Below are positions 27,651-42,603 of a DNA stretch of 47,402 nt, piece by piece (within the stretch, counting starts at the first letter, position 1; every line of letters starts with the position of its first letter). This stretch comes from a virus. Its lineage: Duplodnaviria; Heunggongvirae; Uroviricota; Caudoviricetes. The notes under the pieces were generated by a model, which did no database searches, was not told the DNA's origin, and worked only from the letters and a program-made list of their open reading frames with translations. The position numbers and the translations under genes were made by a program. The DNA lies in the IMG/VR virus record IMGVR_UViG_2531839180_000006. One strand, given 5' to 3'.

Positions 27651-27685
27651 GGAGTTTACTCACATCTGACAAAATCAATATAAAC

Positions 27686-27705
27686 AGCCCCTCCGGAGAG
27701 GGGCT
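27686..27705. terminator. Perfect hairpin AGCCCCTC-CGGA-GAGGGGCT downstream of the 111-aa ORF and of the tRNA cluster; possible bidirectional terminator
   Basis: 8-bp perfect GC-rich stem with tetraloop read directly. Confidence 0.4.
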
Positions 27706-27939
27706 GGAGAGTGGCGCTATGTGCCATTGCATGGTGCCGGGTGCCTCCCGGTGAATTCAGTACCAGCACCTGAATCCGCGATTATCCCATATACCTACTC
27801 GCTGATTGCCCCTCCGCACAGGGGGATTCACCATGCCAGTTTCTTTTAACAAACTCCCCGCAAACCAGACAACAGTCAACCGCCTGAATTGTGAGACATT
27901 TAAAAAAAGCCCGCAAAAGCGAGCCAAGGAAAATAAGTG

Positions 27940-28016
27940 TGGCGCGTTGTACTGGATTCGAACCAGTGACCGATTGCTTAGAAGGCAATTGCTCTGTCCG
28001 GCTGAGCTAACAACGC
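27940..28016 (-). tRNA. argO: tRNA-Arg (anticodon UCU), argO-like
   Basis: Minus strand GCGTTGTTAGCTCAGCCGGACAGAGCAATTGCCTTCTAAGCAATCGGTCACTGGTTCGAATCCAGTACAACGCGCCA folds as a canonical cloverleaf (7-bp acceptor, TTCGAAT T-loop, CCA). Confidence 0.85.
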
Positions 28017-28029
28017 AGGATACAGATAA

Positions 28030-28106
28030 TGGACCGCCTTCGGGGACCCGAACTCCGCGCAACCAGCTTCGAAAGCTGGCGCTCTTTCCTGATGAGCTAA
28101 TGGCGG
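28030..28106 (-). tRNA. argN: tRNA-like, probable tRNA-Arg (anticodon UCG by eye), argN-like; non-canonical pairs, possibly degenerate
   Basis: CCGCCATTAGCTCATCAGGAAAGAGCGCCAGCTTTCGAAGCTGGTTGCGCGGAGTTCGGGTCCCCGAAGGCGGTCCA: cloverleaf possible but A-A mismatch in acceptor stem, A-C mismatch in T-stem, G at position 58. Confidence 0.55.
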
Positions 28107-28113
28107 TATGTGA

Positions 28114-28189
28114 TGGTGGCCCTTGCTGGATTTGAACCAGCGACCTGGCGATTATGAGTCGCTCGCTCTCACCACTGAGCTAAAGGGCC
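28114..28189 (-). tRNA. ileZ: tRNA with anticodon CAU (Ile2/lysidine type, ileZ-like; formally Met/Ile)
   Basis: GGCCCTTTAGCTCAGTGGTGAGAGCGAGCGACTCATAATCGCCAGGTCGCTGGTTCAAATCCAGCAAGGGCCACCA; closely resembles E. coli tRNA-Ile2; perfect acceptor stem, TTCAAAT T-loop. Confidence 0.85.
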
Positions 28190-29438: not shown

Positions 29439-29636
29439 TCACTGAGGAAGGCGTCTGTAACAACCGAACTGATAATCTGCCAGACCCGCCATAACAAGCT
29501 GAGTCAGTATTAACTGGCAGCGTTCGCGTGAAAGGTAAGTATTCTGCGCAATTTCCCCGACGGTCGCCGGTTCGGTGACGCTTAATTCATTAAACACCAC
29601 TCTGGCGGTTTCGGTCATATCCTGCTGTTTTAGCAT
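29439..29636 (-). CDS. Small hypothetical protein, possible winged-helix/HTH regulator (65 aa)
   Basis: ORF with AAGGGA SD; 'VGEIAQNTYLSRERCQLILTQLVMAGL' helix-turn-helix-like segment. Confidence 0.45.
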   Translation of the reverse strand: MLKQQDMTETARVVFNELSVTEPATVGEIAQNTYLSRERCQLILTQLVMAGLADYQFGCYRRLPQ

Positions 29637-29855
29637 GTCTTTTTCCCTTTTCTGGTTAACGTGACATACCAATAACTCTTGTCTAAAAAGCCAGCAAGCT
29701 GAAAGACCGGTATTCGCAACCACCAGCGCGTTTAACGTACTGCATCAATTTTCGAGCATAAAAAGACCGCCTGAGGGCAGCCTTTTTACATTAAAATTAA
29801 GTTTTCTTTAACTATGTTGTATGTGAAATTAGCATTCCCTACTGAGTTTATACAA

Positions 29856-30599
29856 CTAATCTGACGTCACACGCACCATTATACTTACTAAAGAAAAGTC
29901 ATCATCAGGTCCGGCTCTCTCTATACGACGCAAAATGCCATTAGAAAACTTCTGACTATTACTCATCGTATTTGATGTAAATCTGGGGCGTTTTTCCCAA
30001 ACGTTATGAACCCCATCAGACATGATACACAGATGATATACCCCGTTAATACTAGGTAAATCTTTCCATGTGATAAAATCACAGTCGTATTCCATATCAA
30101 CATTTGAGGCTATAGCCGTCGTTAAGATATTTTTGCCCGGTTTATCCTTCAAATCTCTGGGTTTAAAAATATTCTGATCAATTAGCATCTGATGCCTGGT
30201 ATCGTCCTTCGTCAATTGGTATGCTTTCTTCTCTCCAATGCAATACAAACGACAATCACCAATATGACCAATAATAATTCCGCTATCACAAACATAACAA
30301 AACGTAAGTGTAGTAGCAGCTTTATCGAACTCATCATTAACATCAGCTAACGACATAACCTTTCGCTTAACTTCATCAAATACATCCGGAACTGTGTCAA
30401 AAGATAAGCTTGTCAATGCTGAAAGCTCAGCAATTGCCATTGATGAAGCCTGACTGGCACCAGTGTATGAACCTACACCATCAGCTACGGCAAATAAGAT
30501 GCCATCCCCTACAATTTTGGGAGGAAGCAATGAATCTTCGTTGACCCTACCTGGTTCTTTTGGATACGAGAATGATGAAGTCGCTATCAGCTGAATCAT
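29856..30599 (-). CDS. PP2C-family (PPM) Ser/Thr protein phosphatase
   Basis: PPM motifs 'NEDS', 'FAVADGVGS', 'GDCRLY', 'MSDGV', 'DDDFS'; start overlaps kinase stop (ATGA); AT-rich. Confidence 0.8.
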   Translation of the reverse strand: MIQLIATSSFSYPKEPGRVNEDSLLPPKIVGDGILFAVADGVGSYTGASQASSMAIAELSALTSLSFDTVPDVFDEVKRKVMSLADVNDEFDKAATTLTFCYVCDSGIIIGHIGDCRLYCIGEKKAYQLTKDDTRHQMLIDQNIFKPRDLKDKPGKNILTTAIASNVDMEYDCDFITWKDLPSINGVYHLCIMSDGVHNVWEKRPRFTSNTMSNSQKFSNGILRRIERAGPDDDFSLVSIMVRVTSD

Positions 30600-31361
30600 G
30601 ACTCACTCCTTAAAAAAGAATGCACAAAATCAAACGCCACATCATCTATTGTCTGATATCTATCATCTTTATCCATCCTGGTACACTTCGCTATGATAGG
30701 CTTTATTTTTTTATCATCTAAATTTAAGTCCTCAATTAACCGCCCCACCGCATAAACATCAGTCTTAACTGAATACTCGGCATTATATAAAATCTCGGGA
30801 GCCATATATCTTGTACTTCCCATACGGGTACCGATCTCGGTCAATTTAGTGGTATCCCCTTCGGGATTTGTATCTTTTACCAGACCAAAATCAGACACCT
30901 TGTATGTTCCGTCGCTAAATCGCAAGACATTAAATGGTTTTATATCTCTGTGTAAATAGCCTTTCGCATGGATGTGAGCTACACCATCTAATACCATTTT
31001 CACTATTGAAATTTTTTGATCTGTTGTAAGAAGGTTGTTCGTTATTTCGTGCTCAAGATCACATTCTGCTTTATCCATAATGAACCATGGATTCTCGGCA
31101 AACAAATCGCACAAATAAATAGGAACAATATTGCTATGTACGCAATGTGATTGATACACGACCTCCCTTTTAAAACGCCTTCTAAACTGCTCTATTTGCG
31201 CCAAAAGCTCTGGTTTTTCGGGGGCTAAAACCTTTCTAGCATAATCCCCACATTCACCCTTGTTGAGGTTGTAAACCTTAACGTGTTCAACAAAGCCAAA
31301 TGCACCTCTTCCAATCAACTGAATTCGTTTTATAAAGTAATTACCGTGCTGTTCTTCCATT
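30596..31361 (-). CDS. Eukaryotic-like (Hanks-type) Ser/Thr protein kinase
   Basis: Gly-loop 'GRGAFGFV', 'YARKVL' lysine, catalytic loop 'HRDIKPFN', 'DFG', 'MAPE'; AT-rich; start MEEQHG chosen. Confidence 0.85.
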
Positions 31362-31378
31362 AAGCTCACCGACCTAAA

Positions 31379-31403
31379 TTGTAAGAATATCCATATCTTA
31401 CAA
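31379..31403. promoter_or_regulatory. 25-bp palindrome TTGTAAGAATATCCATATCTTACAA immediately upstream of the kinase RBS; operator-like
   Basis: Perfect 8-bp arms TTGTAAGA/TCTTACAA read directly on the plus strand. Confidence 0.4.
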
Positions 31404-31433
31404 CTACAGATAAAAAGGTCCACAGAGTTAAGC

Positions 31434-31458
31434 AAAAAACCCGCATTTAAGCGGGTTT
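31434..31458 (-). terminator. Intrinsic terminator downstream of the Q-like gene (AAACCCGC-TTAAAT-GCGGGTTTTTT on minus strand); candidate tR'
   Basis: GC-rich stem followed by U6 run on minus-strand transcript. Confidence 0.6.
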
Positions 31459-31504
31459 ACACACTATACGGCAAAATATCACATTTACATAAAATGTATG
31501 CGAT

Positions 31505-32194
31505 TTAATTGACTTTTGCAATATCTCGTCGTGAAAAGGTCGCTTTTTGTTGCGATCTCATTTTCACGGTGCAAATCAAGGATTCTGTATCGAGTTTCTT
31601 AAAAATGTCGCACATCTCACGCCAGTAGTTCGCATAATTATGGCTCCAGTTGTCAGGCTTAACTCCACACAGTCTGGCAAGTTCCTGTCGCTGGTAGACG
31701 TCACGCCCAGTAATCCTCCCCCTGACATCCTGCGCCGCCAGCCAGATTAATTTCTTCAGACGCTCAAGCGTTTTCCCTGTAATTTTTCTGGTGCCAAAAT
31801 GCACCTGAAACTTATCCCACGCCCATTTCGCAATGACCACCTGATAATCCCAACTCGGATTTTCACTGTATACCCACAGCACCCACGCCTTCTGATGCTC
31901 TTCAAGAGACAGAACGGCGCGTCGCCATGATGATGTCGAAAACTCAACCGGACTGACCAGGGCAATTGATGAACCTTTCGCCAGCGATTGCTTTCCCGGG
32001 ATTGGTGGATTATCCCGCGTTATCATTTTTCCAGTCACTTCATCGCGGTACCGGATTTTTTTACGCCTGTAACGCCCTGTATCGAACATGGCATTCTCTT
32101 GCCAGGCTTCAAGCTGACCTTTTGTTGCCCCACTCAAATCAGCGGTGGCGATAATGAGCTGCTCACGCACAAACTGTAAATACTGGTTATTCAT
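31505..32194 (-). CDS. Putative late-gene antiterminator Q (QuuQ/YdfT-like family)
   Basis: 229-aa ORF at the Q position (after rusA, before terminator and late genes); start overlaps rusA stop; family from memory, not lambda-Q-like. Confidence 0.55.
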   Translation of the reverse strand: MNNQYLQFVREQLIIATADLSGATKGQLEAWQENAMFDTGRYRRKKIRYRDEVTGKMITRDNPPIPGKQSLAKGSSIALVSPVEFSTSSWRRAVLSLEEHQKAWVLWVYSENPSWDYQVVIAKWAWDKFQVHFGTRKITGKTLERLKKLIWLAAQDVRGRITGRDVYQRQELARLCGVKPDNWSHNYANYWREMCDIFKKLDTESLICTVKMRSQQKATFSRRDIAKVN

Positions 32195-32556
32195 GCGCAC
32201 TCCAGTTCTGTGATTTTTATCCCCAGCCGCCCACCAGGAACGAGATGACCGCGCACAATATTGATTTCATCAAACTGCTCGTCGTCTATAAGTAGTCCGG
32301 CATGCGTCAGCGCATCCAGTGGTGCCTTCAGGATATTGTCCAGGTCGCGGCGGCGCTTATCCGGTGGCTCTGCAATAATCTTTATCGCCAGCCTTCCGGA
32401 CAGGTTTAATTTCAGCCGCTGCTGGCGAACAATTAGCGCCACATCACGGCGATAACGCTTTCCGGCTTCCGAGATGAAATACGTATTGCCATGACGTCGC
32501 CAGTAGGTATTCACCGTCGGCGGGTAAGGCAAAACAAATTCTATGCGTTCAGTCAT
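32191..32556 (-). CDS. rusA: Holliday junction resolvase RusA
   Basis: 121 aa; 'PPDKRRRDLDNILKAPLDALTHAGLLIDDEQ' matches RusA catalytic region. Confidence 0.85.
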   Translation of the reverse strand: MTERIEFVLPYPPTVNTYWRRHGNTYFISEAGKRYRRDVALIVRQQRLKLNLSGRLAIKIIAEPPDKRRRDLDNILKAPLDALTHAGLLIDDEQFDEINIVRGHLVPGGRLGIKITELECA

Positions 32557-34443: not shown

Positions 34444-34599
34444 TTACTCTCTAGATTCGTAGTCTACGAAAACAGCAACCTCCGTCTGGCCGGTTCGGAT
34501 TCGTACCTCGCAGAGGTCTTTCCTCGTTACCAGTGCCGTCACTATGACGGTTAAACAGATGACGATAAGGGCGATTAACATCGCCTTTTGCTGCTTCAT
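34444..34599 (-). CDS. hok: Hok-family type I toxin (HokD/RelF-like membrane peptide)
   Basis: 'MKQQKAMLIALIVICLTVIVTALVTRKDLCEVRIRTGQTEVAVF' matches Hok/Gef family; AAGGAG SD; in-frame upstream extension (to 34656) may be mok-like. Confidence 0.85.
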   Translation of the reverse strand: MKQQKAMLIALIVICLTVIVTALVTRKDLCEVRIRTGQTEVAVFVDYESRE

Positions 34600-35025
34600 A
34601 GCCTGCTTCTCCTTGCCTTTCGGCACGTAAGAGGCTAACCTACATTTGTGAGACATAGATTGGGCCTCAGATTAATGTTAAGCGTCTTGCAGGACGCGTA
34701 ATGTTAACTGGGGCTTTTCTCTATCTGCCTTTTGGTGTTCATGCCTGAGACAGATAGCCTCAAGCACCCGCAGCAATTCTACTTAACTCTCCTTTTCCCG
34801 CAAACCGTTTTTATCCTCAACGTAAATTTTACCAATATTGCCTAACACATCTCCCTTGCCCTGACGATGCTTACCTCTTTACACAGACCCAAATTTATGT
34901 ATTATCTTTTACAAACAAGCAGTTAAGAGCTATCGGTGGGTGAGTTCGCCCTGCGGTAGCTTTTCCTTTATGCATTGCATCTATTTATGTTCTAGTATAT
35001 TCCTATATGTTCAAAAGGACTTTTC

Positions 35026-35958
35026 ATGCACAGCGTTAATTTCTATTCATTCCGCGTATTGACCCATAAAGGCAGTCGAGCCAGCAAAAAACTTAATGAA
35101 TTGGGTTTAAGTAATAAAAAAACGGCATATGAACTTTTTGTTGATTATTTTACTCTATATAAAAACACCCCCATCGAGTTTGGCGTATCCAAAACTAAAA
35201 TATCTCTGGAACAACACGCTAAACTTCACTTTGATAACTCAAAGAAAATTATATATGGTTATATAAAAGTTGGGAAATATGGAGAAAGCAGTGAAATAAA
35301 AGATGTAAAACTCAAAAAAATCCACTACAGGACAACTGCTTATGATGTAACACTCAAAGAACGTTATATTTTAATATACCTACCAGACGCCCTTGAAGAA
35401 GGAATTATTGCATTCCACTCTTGCGATAATATTTCTGCCCGAGGTGTCCTTTCTGATTCTATCACTGAATATCTAAAAAACAAATTTCAACTCGAAGCAA
35501 GAATCAATCCATTACATCATAAGAAAATCCCTCAATATATTCTCAATTCCGAATTAAAACAAATTAAGGCTCAAGGATATAAAGCACCAAAAGACATTGC
35601 TGATTCCTTTGGTCAAAACAAAACAAACATCAAGACAGACTTAATAATAAAAGCAAACGATGGCATGTTCGGAAGTTTCAGGGATTTAAGAAACAAGAAT
35701 ATAGGAAACATCATTGAGATTATTGAAGATAAATGTGATGCAATAAAAGTAAGCTTACAACTCGGCAGTCGGACTGTCGTTTTCAATTATGAGACCATAC
35801 TAAAAAAAGGAATTTCTGCAGAGTTAGATGATAATGATTTAAAAATCGACCCATTAACAGGCATACCTGATCTAACAGCACTTCATGACACGATAAAAAA
35901 CCTTTCTAATGATATATTGTTAGAACTGCATAGCGGAAACAAAGGGGTGATTATATGA
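35026..35958 (+). CDS. Hypothetical soluble protein (310 aa), first gene of an AT-rich two-gene cassette; candidate sensor component
   Basis: Long ORF with SD AAAAGGA; very low GC compared with flanking phage genes; no recognisable catalytic motif by eye. Confidence 0.6.
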   Translation: MHSVNFYSFRVLTHKGSRASKKLNELGLSNKKTAYELFVDYFTLYKNTPIEFGVSKTKISLEQHAKLHFDNSKKIIYGYIKVGKYGESSEIKDVKLKKIHYRTTAYDVTLKERYILIYLPDALEEGIIAFHSCDNISARGVLSDSITEYLKNKFQLEARINPLHHKKIPQYILNSELKQIKAQGYKAPKDIADSFGQNKTNIKTDLIIKANDGMFGSFRDLRNKNIGNIIEIIEDKCDAIKVSLQLGSRTVVFNYETILKKGISAELDDNDLKIDPLTGIPDLTALHDTIKNLSNDILLELHSGNKGVII

Positions 35959-36509
35959 ATAAAATAAATGTGCTGGGTGTAATAATAAAACACTACAAAA
36001 CAATGTCAGATCAGCGTGGAACAATGTTGATGAGCGACATTATCGTACATTTTATTGTTCCGTTATCTCTTTCTTTCGTTCTGTGCCGGACATACGGAAT
36101 AATGAAACCGGCAATTGCTTCCGTCTTCGTTAACTTCGGGGCTATTACAACAGCACTATTAATGAGTGCAGTAATAATGATTTATGAACAAAAACAAAAA
36201 ACCATCACTAAGATATCAGACATAATTGAAGGAAACAAATCCCGAGACAAATTGATATCATTAAACACTAACAAAACCATATATGAGCAGTTATGCCACA
36301 ACGTCGCTTATGCAATATTAACTTCAATAGTATTGGTTATATTTTCAGTGATAATATATTTCCTGCCTGACAATGCAGTGGATTTAATGAAATGGTATTT
36401 TCGCGCACCTGCATATATTGTTAGCTTTTTAGCCTATACATCCTTTTTTATCACTGTTATAACGTTCTTAATGGTAATAAAAAGATTTAGCACAATTTTA
36501 GATAATTGA
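35955..36509 (+). CDS. Hypothetical integral membrane protein (184 aa, ~4 predicted TM helices), second gene of the cassette; candidate membrane effector
   Basis: Four hydrophobic ~20-aa segments; start overlaps upstream stop (ATGA); SD AAAGGGGTGA. Confidence 0.6.
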   Translation: MNKINVLGVIIKHYKTMSDQRGTMLMSDIIVHFIVPLSLSFVLCRTYGIMKPAIASVFVNFGAITTALLMSAVIMIYEQKQKTITKISDIIEGNKSRDKLISLNTNKTIYEQLCHNVAYAILTSIVLVIFSVIIYFLPDNAVDLMKWYFRAPAYIVSFLAYTSFFITVITFLMVIKRFSTILDN

Positions 36510-42086: not shown

Positions 42087-42603
42087 AAACACTCCTTTTT
42101 ACTGTGGAAAGCTAAATCATATCACGGTCTATGAAGTAAAAAGTGAATTTCGTGATGCGGTGAATGCGGCTCAGCGCACGCAGAACAGTTAAAAACACAA
42201 GTGTTATGGGTGAATCATCCGGCGTTAATTGTTAACTGGTTAACGTCACCTGGAGGCACCAGGCACCGCATCACAAAGTTCACTTAGGTGATGAAAGGTA
42301 GAGAAAATGTTGAATGTAGCTATTGAAAACCAGAACGGGTGGAATTATAGTGCACCTGCACCTCATAAAACGGGTGCCGGGCGTGGAAACCCGATGTTCA
42401 CTAACGCGCATAATCGCGCTCAGGCGGTTTTTTTATGCGTAATGCACAGCCACATTCAGATTATGGTGGGACGTGCAGGGCAGCCGCAAGGCTGGCCGGG
42501 TTCGTTAGTGACCGGTATTTCCACCCCTGTACGTCTCACCACCCTTATGGTCGTGGAAAACCTTGGTGGTGAGTTAATCAAATTCACTAACGAGGCTGCT
42601 ATC

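Follow-up and report, generated by a model that had tools for sequence, protein, structure and literature searches.

A mobile two-gene Ser/Thr kinase–PP2C phosphatase cassette in the late region of a lambdoid prophage, a candidate defence module of temperate phages

INTRODUCTION

IMG/VR record IMGVR_UViG_2531839180_000006, a stretch of 47,402 nucleotides (hereafter, the window), is a complete lambdoid prophage of E. coli that adjoins potC and whose genes lie on the minus strand. Behind its gene for the late antiterminator Q, a first-pass annotation made from the letters alone had noticed a gene for a Ser/Thr protein kinase directly followed by one for a PP2C-type phosphatase. The locus raises the question of what such a pair is doing there: does it belong to the late programme of the phage, or is it cargo with a function of its own?

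Prophage kinase–phosphatase modules as such are already known. The KKP system, composed of PfpC, PfkB and PfkA, is carried by Pf6, P2, P4 and Mu-like prophages (Guo et al. 2024, PMC11341870). Its two kinases are jointly toxic, its phosphatase (PfpC) is the antitoxin, and PfpC is inhibited by the Gp59 protein of phage T4; KKP defends against T4, T1, T5 and T7, and also regulates Pf induction (PMC11341870). What is new here is a version made up of only two genes, one kinase and one PP2C.

RESULTS AND DISCUSSION

The kinase and PP2C genes travel as an obligate pair

The two genes form an obligate mobile unit. The overlap of their stop and start codons as ATGA, proposed in the first-pass annotation, was confirmed, and an AGGAG Shine-Dalgarno sequence was found within the 3′-end of the kinase gene, 6 nt before the start codon of PP2C (Table 1). 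Eighty IMG/VR loci, corresponding to 35 lineages when clustered at a nucleotide identity of at least 90%, were found through the PP2C family, and the kinase gene lay directly 5′ of the PP2C gene in all of them (80/80); in the first set of loci, PP2C lay directly 3′ of the kinase in 34/34. Of the 35 viral lineages, 26 have an ATGA overlap at the junction, which agrees with the translational coupling suggested earlier, and 32 have an overlap or a gap of 3 nt or less. The ATGA was read directly in the loci of Yersinia, Pseudomonas, phage Flotzy and phiES15, and gene coordinates indicate that the two genes likewise overlap by 4 nt in Xanthomonas, Enterobacter, Raoultella and Hafnia.

The two proteins also diverge together. 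Their percentages of identity to the window proteins drop in parallel (kinase/PP2C: 100/100, 99/96, 94/82, 63/59, 48/45, 47/48, 45/41 and 40/42), and homologue searches recovered two parallel families, each of ~205–210 clusters at 90% identity, with the same host genera and many contigs in common. The PP2C family is small; a profile search of 1.84 billion representatives yielded ~20 clusters at 50% identity before scores fell to those of generic PP2C proteins. Since the catalytic residues, the overlap and the pairing are kept down to ~40% identity, a span that covers Enterobacterales, Vibrio, Pseudomonas, Xanthomonas and Pasteurellaceae, the comparison implies long-term purifying selection on both predicted enzyme activities.

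Both enzymes appear to be catalytically intact

One protein is a genuine member of the Hanks kinase superfamily, and the other of the PPM/PP2C superfamily. The kinase contains the motifs GRGAFG (residues 17–22), K43, E66, HRDIKPFN (137–144), DFG (157–159), APE (187–189), D201 and R234. Across 21 homologues with 43–75% identity, the residues G17, G19, G22, K43, E66, H137-R138-D139, K141, N144, D157-F158-G159, P188-E189, D201 and R234 were all invariant. This alignment, together with the Pkinase match (Table 1), bears out the earlier statement that all core Hanks motifs are present, and the Lys of HRDxK marks the enzyme as a Ser/Thr rather than a Tyr kinase. Pkinase and PK_Tyr_Ser-Thr were the only domain matches, and in PHROGs the protein falls in phrog_2361 (‘serine-threonine kinase’). 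The open reading frame (ORF) was correctly recognized in the first-pass annotation, although its upper coordinate and length (31361 and 255 aa) were off by one, the correct values being 31360 and 254 aa.

The AlphaFold2 (AF2) model of the kinase had a pLDDT (its score in the predicted local distance difference test) of 87.8 and a predicted template-modelling score (pTM) of 0.85, with only the activation loop (residues 163–179) disordered. A Foldseek search of the PDB returned BTK, PknB and Src (E ∼1e-14, TM-score ∼0.72). The C-lobe of the model is compact, with one short helix (220–226) between alpha-F and R234, and the activation loop region contains a conserved T174 and a Ser/Thr at position 182. 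Judged by these features, the kinase looks active.

The PP2C ORF was confirmed with the coordinates, length and motifs first reported (Table 1). Residues N20, D22, D40-G41, G114-D115, D195-G196 and D233-D234 were invariant in 22 homologues, with either E or Q at position 21, and the metal-binding Asp residues of motifs I, II, VIII and XI are present (D22, D40, D195 and D233/D234). The AF2 model (pLDDT 92.0) shows a beta-sandwich fold, for which Foldseek found Stp1, PstP, tPphA and PppA at TM-scores of 0.75–0.81. Profile matches and confident models thus support both folds, and the catalytic residues of both enzymes are invariant over homologues of 43–82% identity. Neither protein contains a membrane or DNA-binding domain.

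In PHROGs, PP2C belongs to phrog_5650, the function of which is listed as unknown. The protein aligns only to positions 273–520 of this 565-position profile, and some members of the family may therefore be fused kinase–PP2C proteins, or gene calls merged across the ATGA overlap.

The cassette is a foreign insertion just downstream of Q

The kinase/PP2C cassette is a foreign insertion in the PR′–tR′ leader just 3′ of Q. In pairwise alignments of the window with two empty-site prophages of the same Q family (L128 and L129), homology breaks at 31469/70 and restarts at 29787, and these breakpoints therefore delimit the insert (Table 1). The empty sites of RM13516 and AR_0067 consist of Q, ∼27 nt, a terminator (aaaaaactgccgccaggcggttttttt) and then a small 65-aa gene. 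The proposed insertion in the late region, with the pair between Q and the methyltransferase, tRNA and lysis genes, was therefore correct, as was the AT-richness attributed to it: the GC fraction is 0.37–0.39 over the pair against about 0.50 in the flanks (0.39 versus 0.49 for the whole cassette). A difference in the same direction, of 6–13 points, was seen between cassette and flanks in 15 of the 15 loci examined.

The cassette as a whole is a self-contained, horizontally mobile accessory unit (a ‘moron’) of temperate phages. It sits between two genes, Q and the small gene, that are adjacent in RM13516 and AR_0067; its base composition differs from that of its flanks; and it has flanking terminators and a conserved −35/−10-like element, albeit one that is weak in single sequences and does not score above shuffled ones. 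An Rfam scan found no family match inside the cassette. The Q family of the window is present in ∼319 complete E. coli genomes, 50 of which contain the kinase/PP2C pair.

The junction between Q/PR′ and the small gene is a hot spot for cargo, empty in RM13516 and AR_0067 and occupied by the pair in those 50 E. coli genomes. In the Stx2e phage phiP27 (L002, 6453..7682) it holds a gene for a 409-aa GIY-YIG nuclease (L22), and in strain VTB97585v (L130, 2543..3403) the same Q family is followed by a gene for a DUF5677 protein, placed immediately in front of the holins. Vassallo et al. reportedly validated a GIY-YIG protein, PD-T4-3, as a defence gene.

Table 1. Features of the kinase/PP2C cassette and its flanks (positions are those of the window; aa, amino acids; UTR, untranslated region; wHTH, winged helix-turn-helix)
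Feature	Position	Strand	Basis and remarks
Whole inserted cassette	29788..31469	−	∼1.68 kb, GC ∼0.39; 5′ terminator hairpin, leader with promoter-like element, kinase, PP2C, 3′ UTR
Minimal Hanks-type Ser/Thr kinase	30596..31360	−	254 aa, catalytic domain only; Pfam Pkinase E = 2e-33
PPM/PP2C Ser/Thr phosphatase	29856..30599	−	247 aa; PP2C_2 E = 2e-14; NCBIfam Stp1_PP2C E = 1e-26
Kinase–PP2C junction	30596..30610	−	AGGAG Shine-Dalgarno 30606..30610 inside kinase 3′-end, ATGA stop/start 30596..30599; read from sequence
Intrinsic terminator hairpin at 5′ edge of cassette	31431..31458	−	AAACCCGC-6-GCGGGTTT plus T run; terminator scan, repeat search
Sigma-70-like element	31395..31422	−	−35 TGGACC 31422..31417, 16-nt spacer, −10 TAAGAT 31400..31395; predicted start ∼31388
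Inverted repeat	31379..31403	.	perfect 8-bp arms (TTGTAAGA/TCTTACAA), 9-nt non-palindromic spacer; overlaps −10-like element and predicted start
Shine-Dalgarno-like GGTGAG of kinase	31365..31370	−	read from sequence; GGTGAG also in Yersinia, GGTGGA in Raoultella
Ancestral tR′-type terminator, now 3′ of PP2C	29759..29788	−	flank, not cargo; inverted repeat homologous to the post-Q/PR′ terminator of empty-site prophages
Late antiterminator Q (flank)	31505..32200	−	Phage_antiter_Q E = 4e-84
Backbone 65-aa gene (outside module)	29439..29636	−	weak TrmB-like wHTH match, E = 0.0026 (under Pfam cut-off); phrog_331

The leader contains a terminator hairpin and a probable promoter

The hairpin immediately 3′ of Q (31437..31458) had been read as Q’s own terminator. 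It is missing at the empty sites, and the same stem recurs in locus L113, in front of a cassette 94% identical to that of the window but behind another Q; the hairpin therefore travels with the cassette. It would stop PR′ transcripts when Q is absent.

Downstream of this hairpin, a motif-anchored comparison revealed a bipartite element, T[AG]GA[CT]N-16/17-TAnnnT, kept in 9/9 enterobacterial loci (seven independent lineages) although the spacer and flanks have diverged. Its −10 part ends 30–36 nt 5′ of the kinase start codon in all nine. The chance rate of the element is 1.4% per sequence, the pattern having been defined post hoc from the same data; a MAFFT alignment of the upstream regions was uninformative on the promoter. 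Its scores in single sequences do not exceed those of shuffled ones, but its conserved position makes it a probable internal promoter.

A 25-bp palindrome overlapping this element had been proposed as an operator. An inverted repeat is indeed present, although only its 8-bp arms are palindromic (Table 1); a repeat of this kind in a leader of 76 nt has a chance probability of ∼0.7%, judged post hoc. The −10-like element forms its left arm. In the 96% E. coli allele, mirrored changes in the arms give a T/G combination, which is a wobble pair in RNA but a mismatch in DNA. The right arm is missing in the 94%-identical variant and replaced by unrelated sequence in more distant lineages. The operator reading is thus unsupported, since one arm coincides with the −10-like element and the other is not conserved beyond the E. 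coli alleles; moreover, neither protein of the pair has a DNA-binding domain. The folding of the read-through leader RNA (z = −3.2) is dominated by the terminator hairpin.

The copy located on an island of P. putida (L007, 7850..7880) has a perfect 11-bp inverted repeat (CGCGACATCAT-6-ATGATGTCGCG) ∼100 nt 5′ of the kinase, unrelated to the E. coli repeat.

The small putative helix-turn-helix gene downstream of the pair exists as described, with a weak TrmB match, but its presumed link to the module did not hold. It is a backbone gene that adjoins Q or other cargo in phiP27, in Stx2 phages, in RM13516 and in AR_0067, all of which lack the pair, and the ancestral terminator stands between it and the pair. 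It was therefore discarded as a regulator of the module. As this gene is not linked to the module and the operator is not conserved, the idea of assaying its product on the repeat by electrophoretic mobility shift has no comparative basis.

The same cassette occupies late, immunity and non-phage positions

Besides E. coli, carriers of the pair occur in Yersinia, Cronobacter, Enterobacter, Hafnia, Providencia, Vibrio, Pseudomonas and Pasteurellaceae. Only 50 of 5426 complete E. coli genomes contain it, among them those of E24377A and 55989, an enterotoxigenic and an enteroaggregative strain, respectively. A motif-based scan of genome contigs with the kinase alignment (generic patterns HRDxKPxN and YKxSDFGL) returned only unrelated Hanks kinases, with 24–37% identity.

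In enterobacterial lambdoid phages, in which three Q families are involved, the cassette is always co-oriented with the late operon. It lies between Q and the holin gene in the window, phiES15, Yersinia (three phage backgrounds), Raoultella and Hafnia; after a methyltransferase gene and before the holin gene in Providencia; and between Rz and terminase in phage Flotzy and Enterobacter. Marker mapping placed the pair in the Q–lysis–terminase interval in 17 of the 35 viral lineages.

Other lineages place it elsewhere. In L194 (4392..6708) and L178 (4719..6702) the pair lies directly 3′ of a cI-type repressor gene and in the same orientation, with a gap of 95 nt and no terminator between cI and the pair in L194; an operon of cro- and YdaT-like genes diverges from cI. 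This cI–kinase–PP2C arrangement is that of lambda cI-rexA-rexB, the position also taken by stk in phage 933W. In L187 the pair follows cI and N; in the Mu-like phage L190 it adjoins SieB, Mor and GemA; and in a Haemophilus prophage it is near int. In Xanthomonas it lies outside any phage, with a NACHT/nSTAND3 gene and the gene of a SymE toxin as neighbours, and in P. putida it is on a transposase-rich, non-phage island.

These positions bear on whether the pair serves the lytic cycle, being expressed only from PR′ under Q antitermination along with the lysis and morphogenesis genes. Such a role would suit the enterobacterial pairs, always co-oriented in the late operon between Q and terminase, and the window itself, where the pair lies between PR′ and the ancestral tR′ behind a hairpin that would block Q-independent read-through; the stx2 genes of related phages are likewise cargo of the same late region. 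Co-orientation, however, is expected of any insert tolerated in a long operon. After cI, beside SieB, near int or on islands, the late promoter cannot drive the cassette, and the internal promoter-like element is conserved; a terminator-like hairpin is present after PP2C in nearly all the lineages read. The copies after cI and on islands, and the terminators on either side of the cassette, speak against a role that is purely late, although the late-operon position in the window keeps this explanation alive. On balance, we regard it as improbable. The accompanying proposal, that the kinase, like that of T7, remodels host proteins or disarms host defences at a late stage of infection, with the phosphatase limiting the damage, seems improbable to the same degree; it draws on a preprint that reports the T7 kinase as a broad counter to bacterial defences (bioRxiv 10.1101/2024.12.20.629319).

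The copies adjoining cI in L194, L178 and L187 also fit a module for lysogenic conversion or prophage regulation, in which the pair would set the phosphorylation of host or prophage regulators (nucleoid-associated silencers, repressors) and so tune induction or physiology. A reversible enzyme pair under strict co-expression would suit a set-point regulator, and pathotypes, for example E24377A and 55989, are found among the E. coli carriers. There are precedents: KKP steers induction of the Pf prophage through MvaU phosphorylation (PMC11341870), and a study in Shewanella describes control of CP4So excision by phosphorylation of H-NS (PMC8034616). Since the cassette moves among unrelated phages (lambdoid, Mu-like and beside a PM2-like prophage) and non-phage islands, a phage-specific regulatory target is disfavoured, and neither protein has a DNA-binding or sensor domain. 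Regulation as the main role appears unlikely, although it would be compatible with defence, as KKP does both.

Natural lesions fall in the kinase gene

Among the 50 E. coli carriers, three independent lesions disrupt the kinase, and PP2C was never lost alone; no carrier combined an intact kinase with a broken PP2C. The kinase has a 1-bp frameshift in L119 (118UI), common to five genomes; a 10-bp deletion removes its N-terminus in L120 (510016); and the insertion sequence IS1 interrupts it in L121 (SY033), where an IS3 element also truncates PP2C. These kinase-only lesions give a weak hint that the kinase is costly.

The lesions could also be those of inert or selfish cargo, that is, of an addiction-type pair that stabilizes only itself or its prophage, or of a passenger with no present function. 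In favour of this are the rarity of the pair in E. coli, the small size of the family (some 20 clusters at 50% identity) and the several carriers in which the kinase is broken or the prophage degraded. The conservation of catalytic residues, overlap and pairing across five bacterial groups nevertheless makes this explanation very improbable.

The pair resembles, but does not belong to, known kinase systems

The closest parallel is KKP. Both systems are prophage-borne accessory cargo of Gram-negative temperate phages and mobile islands, both join one or more Hanks Ser/Thr kinases to a phosphatase of the PP2C type (PF13672), and the reversible toxin/antitoxin-like logic in which the phosphatase opposes the kinase is proposed here for the pair too. 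They differ in that KKP has three genes, PP2C followed by two kinases, whereas the pair has two, kinase followed by PP2C (in the window and in 80/80 viral loci). The 254-aa kinase has neither the C-terminal cold-shock domain of PfkA nor the FHA domain of PfkB, and leaves no room for an extra domain. With its different gene number, order and accessory domains, the pair is not a member of KKP, the two being set apart by description and not by their sequences.

PADLOC matched the kinase to PD-T4-6 (E = 1e-34) and Stk2 (E = 5e-28), among others. The anti-phage activity of PD-T4-6 has been shown experimentally, and it has a Ser/Thr kinase domain as well (Vassallo et al. 2022). However, it is a single ORF of 1311 nt (436 aa) with a C-terminal extension and is active without a phosphatase, unlike the window kinase with its obligate PP2C; the match spans only positions 11–201 of the 327-position model. 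Stk2, also a Ser/Thr kinase with experimentally shown anti-phage activity (Depardieu et al. 2016), is a single host-encoded locus with a PADLOC profile of ∼500 positions, of which the match spans only 160–347 of 500, that is, the kinase domain. By these comparisons the pair belongs to neither PD-T4-6 nor Stk2. It is known that Stk2 is activated by a phage protein. Membership of mad6, PD-T4-6, Stk2 or MkoA was rejected because the PADLOC matches are at domain level and no better than those of generic Pkinase/PknB models.

Both folds also occur in the housekeeping pairs PknB–PstP, Stk1–Stp1 and PpkA–PppA, and the best structural matches of the two window proteins were PknB on the one side and Stp1, PstP and PppA on the other. 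In such pairs, the PP2C dephosphorylates the activation loop of the kinase and the substrates of the kinase. The housekeeping kinases, however, are large, usually membrane-anchored with PASTA, FHA or other sensors, and encoded by chromosomal core genes, while the window pair is sensor-less, AT-rich and mobile. Scores against the NCBIfam equivalog models stayed far under the cut-offs (kinase, 104 versus 450 bits; phosphatase, 93.5 versus 230), which indicates that the pair is not equivalent to the Stk1/PknB PASTA kinase or the Stp1/IreP phosphatase.

Two further comparisons concern position more than sequence. The Stk kinase of the Stx phages 933W and Phi24B is also encoded by lambdoid prophages, and the pair occupies the equivalent post-cI position in L194 and L178. 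In stable lysogens of 933W, stk is transcribed from pRM (PMC3430580), and Stk has been reported to block HK97 (PMC6356687). But stk is a single gene with no phosphatase partner, and the window pair lies in the late, not the immunity, region; a tblastn search of 50,697 phage records with the window kinase did not detect 933W Stk at E ≤ 1e-8. Lambda RexAB, SieB and HK97 gp15 are encoded by accessory genes after cI or in late slots, flanked by terminators, and protect the lysogen; rexA and rexB, moreover, are two overlapping accessory genes. They are nonetheless unrelated proteins that act through ion-channel or membrane mechanisms rather than through phosphorylation.

A working model: a reversible kinase toxin and its phosphatase antidote

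The analogy with KKP and the anatomy of the cassette are the reasons for regarding the pair as a phosphorylation-based toxin/antidote module for defence or exclusion, protecting the lysogen and working like KKP. We consider this reading plausible and the likeliest of those weighed here, and would give it an even chance. It fits the accessory slots that the pair occupies (after cI, beside SieB, beside NACHT), the KKP precedent and the kinase-only lesions. For a possible type VII toxin–antitoxin system, in which an enzymatic antitoxin would neutralize a growth-arresting toxin by modifying it chemically, the indications are indirect: the obligate pairing, the conserved overlap and the kinase-only lesions. 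In a more specific version, put forward with slightly less confidence, the pair would be a minimal two-gene ‘KP’ system for abortive infection or exclusion, distinct from KKP, PD-T4-6 and Stk2 in architecture and probably in trigger. It may be, though we would not quite call it probable, that the sensor-less kinase of 250 aa is a reversible toxin, and the coupled PP2C both its antidote and the phage sensor. Equally tentative is the corollary that ‘KP’ spreads as a ∼1.6-kb cassette among the temperate phages and islands of Gammaproteobacteria.

The model would operate as follows. In the lysogen, the conserved promoter-like element of the cassette would drive weak transcription of the pair, with the 5′ hairpin shielding the cassette from the constitutive PR′ promoter, and the start-codon overlap would ensure that phosphatase is made whenever kinase is. 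In an uninfected cell, PP2C would keep the activation loop of the kinase (T174, Ser/Thr 182), as well as the kinase substrates, dephosphorylated. A superinfecting phage might tip the balance if one of its proteins inhibited PP2C, as T4 Gp59 inhibits PfpC; alternatively, the phosphatase might be lost after host shut-off. The kinase would then auto-activate and phosphorylate proteins, of the host or the phage, on which growth or phage replication depends, leading to cell arrest or an aborted infection, and dephosphorylation would render the arrested state reversible. Upon prophage induction, RNA polymerase modified by Q would read through the 5′ hairpin, and the pair would be co-expressed with the late genes.

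Several points weigh against this defence reading. Our literature search, which brought up KKP, Stk, PD-T4-6 and the T7 kinase, found no publication on this two-gene family, and PADLOC gave no significant match for PP2C, those for the kinase (mad6, PD-T4-6 and Stk2) covering the generic kinase domain only. The kinase gene comes first, opposite to the order in KKP, and no sensor domain is recognizable in either protein. The late operon of the window begins with these two genes, a position like that of stx2, and their expression there could be mainly Q-dependent. The promoter-like element, noticed post hoc, is weak in any one sequence (8/12 consensus matches) and does not rise above shuffles in either a generic or a position-weight-matrix scan. 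Finally, the lesion count of three in the kinase versus none in PP2C alone is not statistically significant.

If it truly is a defence system, the pair would be the simplest kinase/phosphatase immune module so far, with ∼500 codons and no accessory domains, and would provide a tractable model for how Ser/Thr phosphorylation arrests a cell or a phage and how a PP2C senses infection. Inducible lambdoid phages of E. coli pathotypes carry it, as do many other genera, and it could therefore affect the host range of phages used in therapy and the competition between prophages. A minimal, widespread two-gene version in phages of pathogenic E. coli makes a good experimental target, even if it will be of little surprise to KKP specialists.

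Other features of the window

A second AT-rich cassette (35026..36509, plus strand; GC ∼0.33) contains genes for proteins of 310 and 184 aa that overlap by 4 nt; the 184-aa protein looks like a multi-pass membrane protein. Lying between hokD/sok and a DUF4752 gene, the cassette is oriented opposite to the genes around it. Searches of Pfam and PADLOC gave no match, and PHROGs only two families of unknown function (phrog_15676 and phrog_15250). A further moron or exclusion system is one possible interpretation. Just upstream of it lie the sok antisense RNA (34594..34769, minus strand; 120 bits in Rfam) and the type I toxin gene hokD.

Other Rfam matches correspond to small RNAs (sRNAs). At 42358..42546 (plus strand), isrK (62 bits) adjoins the C4 antisense RNA (80 bits), sRNAs of the kind involved in P1/P7-type immunity and anti-Q regulation, here within a lambdoid prophage. 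At 27676..27865 and 27940..28189 (both minus strand), the sRNA STnc100 (132 bits) directly follows a cluster of three tRNA genes. The tRNA of this cluster with the anticodon CAT was called ‘Met’ by ARAGORN, whereas RefSeq annotates it as a tRNA-Ile (ileZ-like) in identical prophages.

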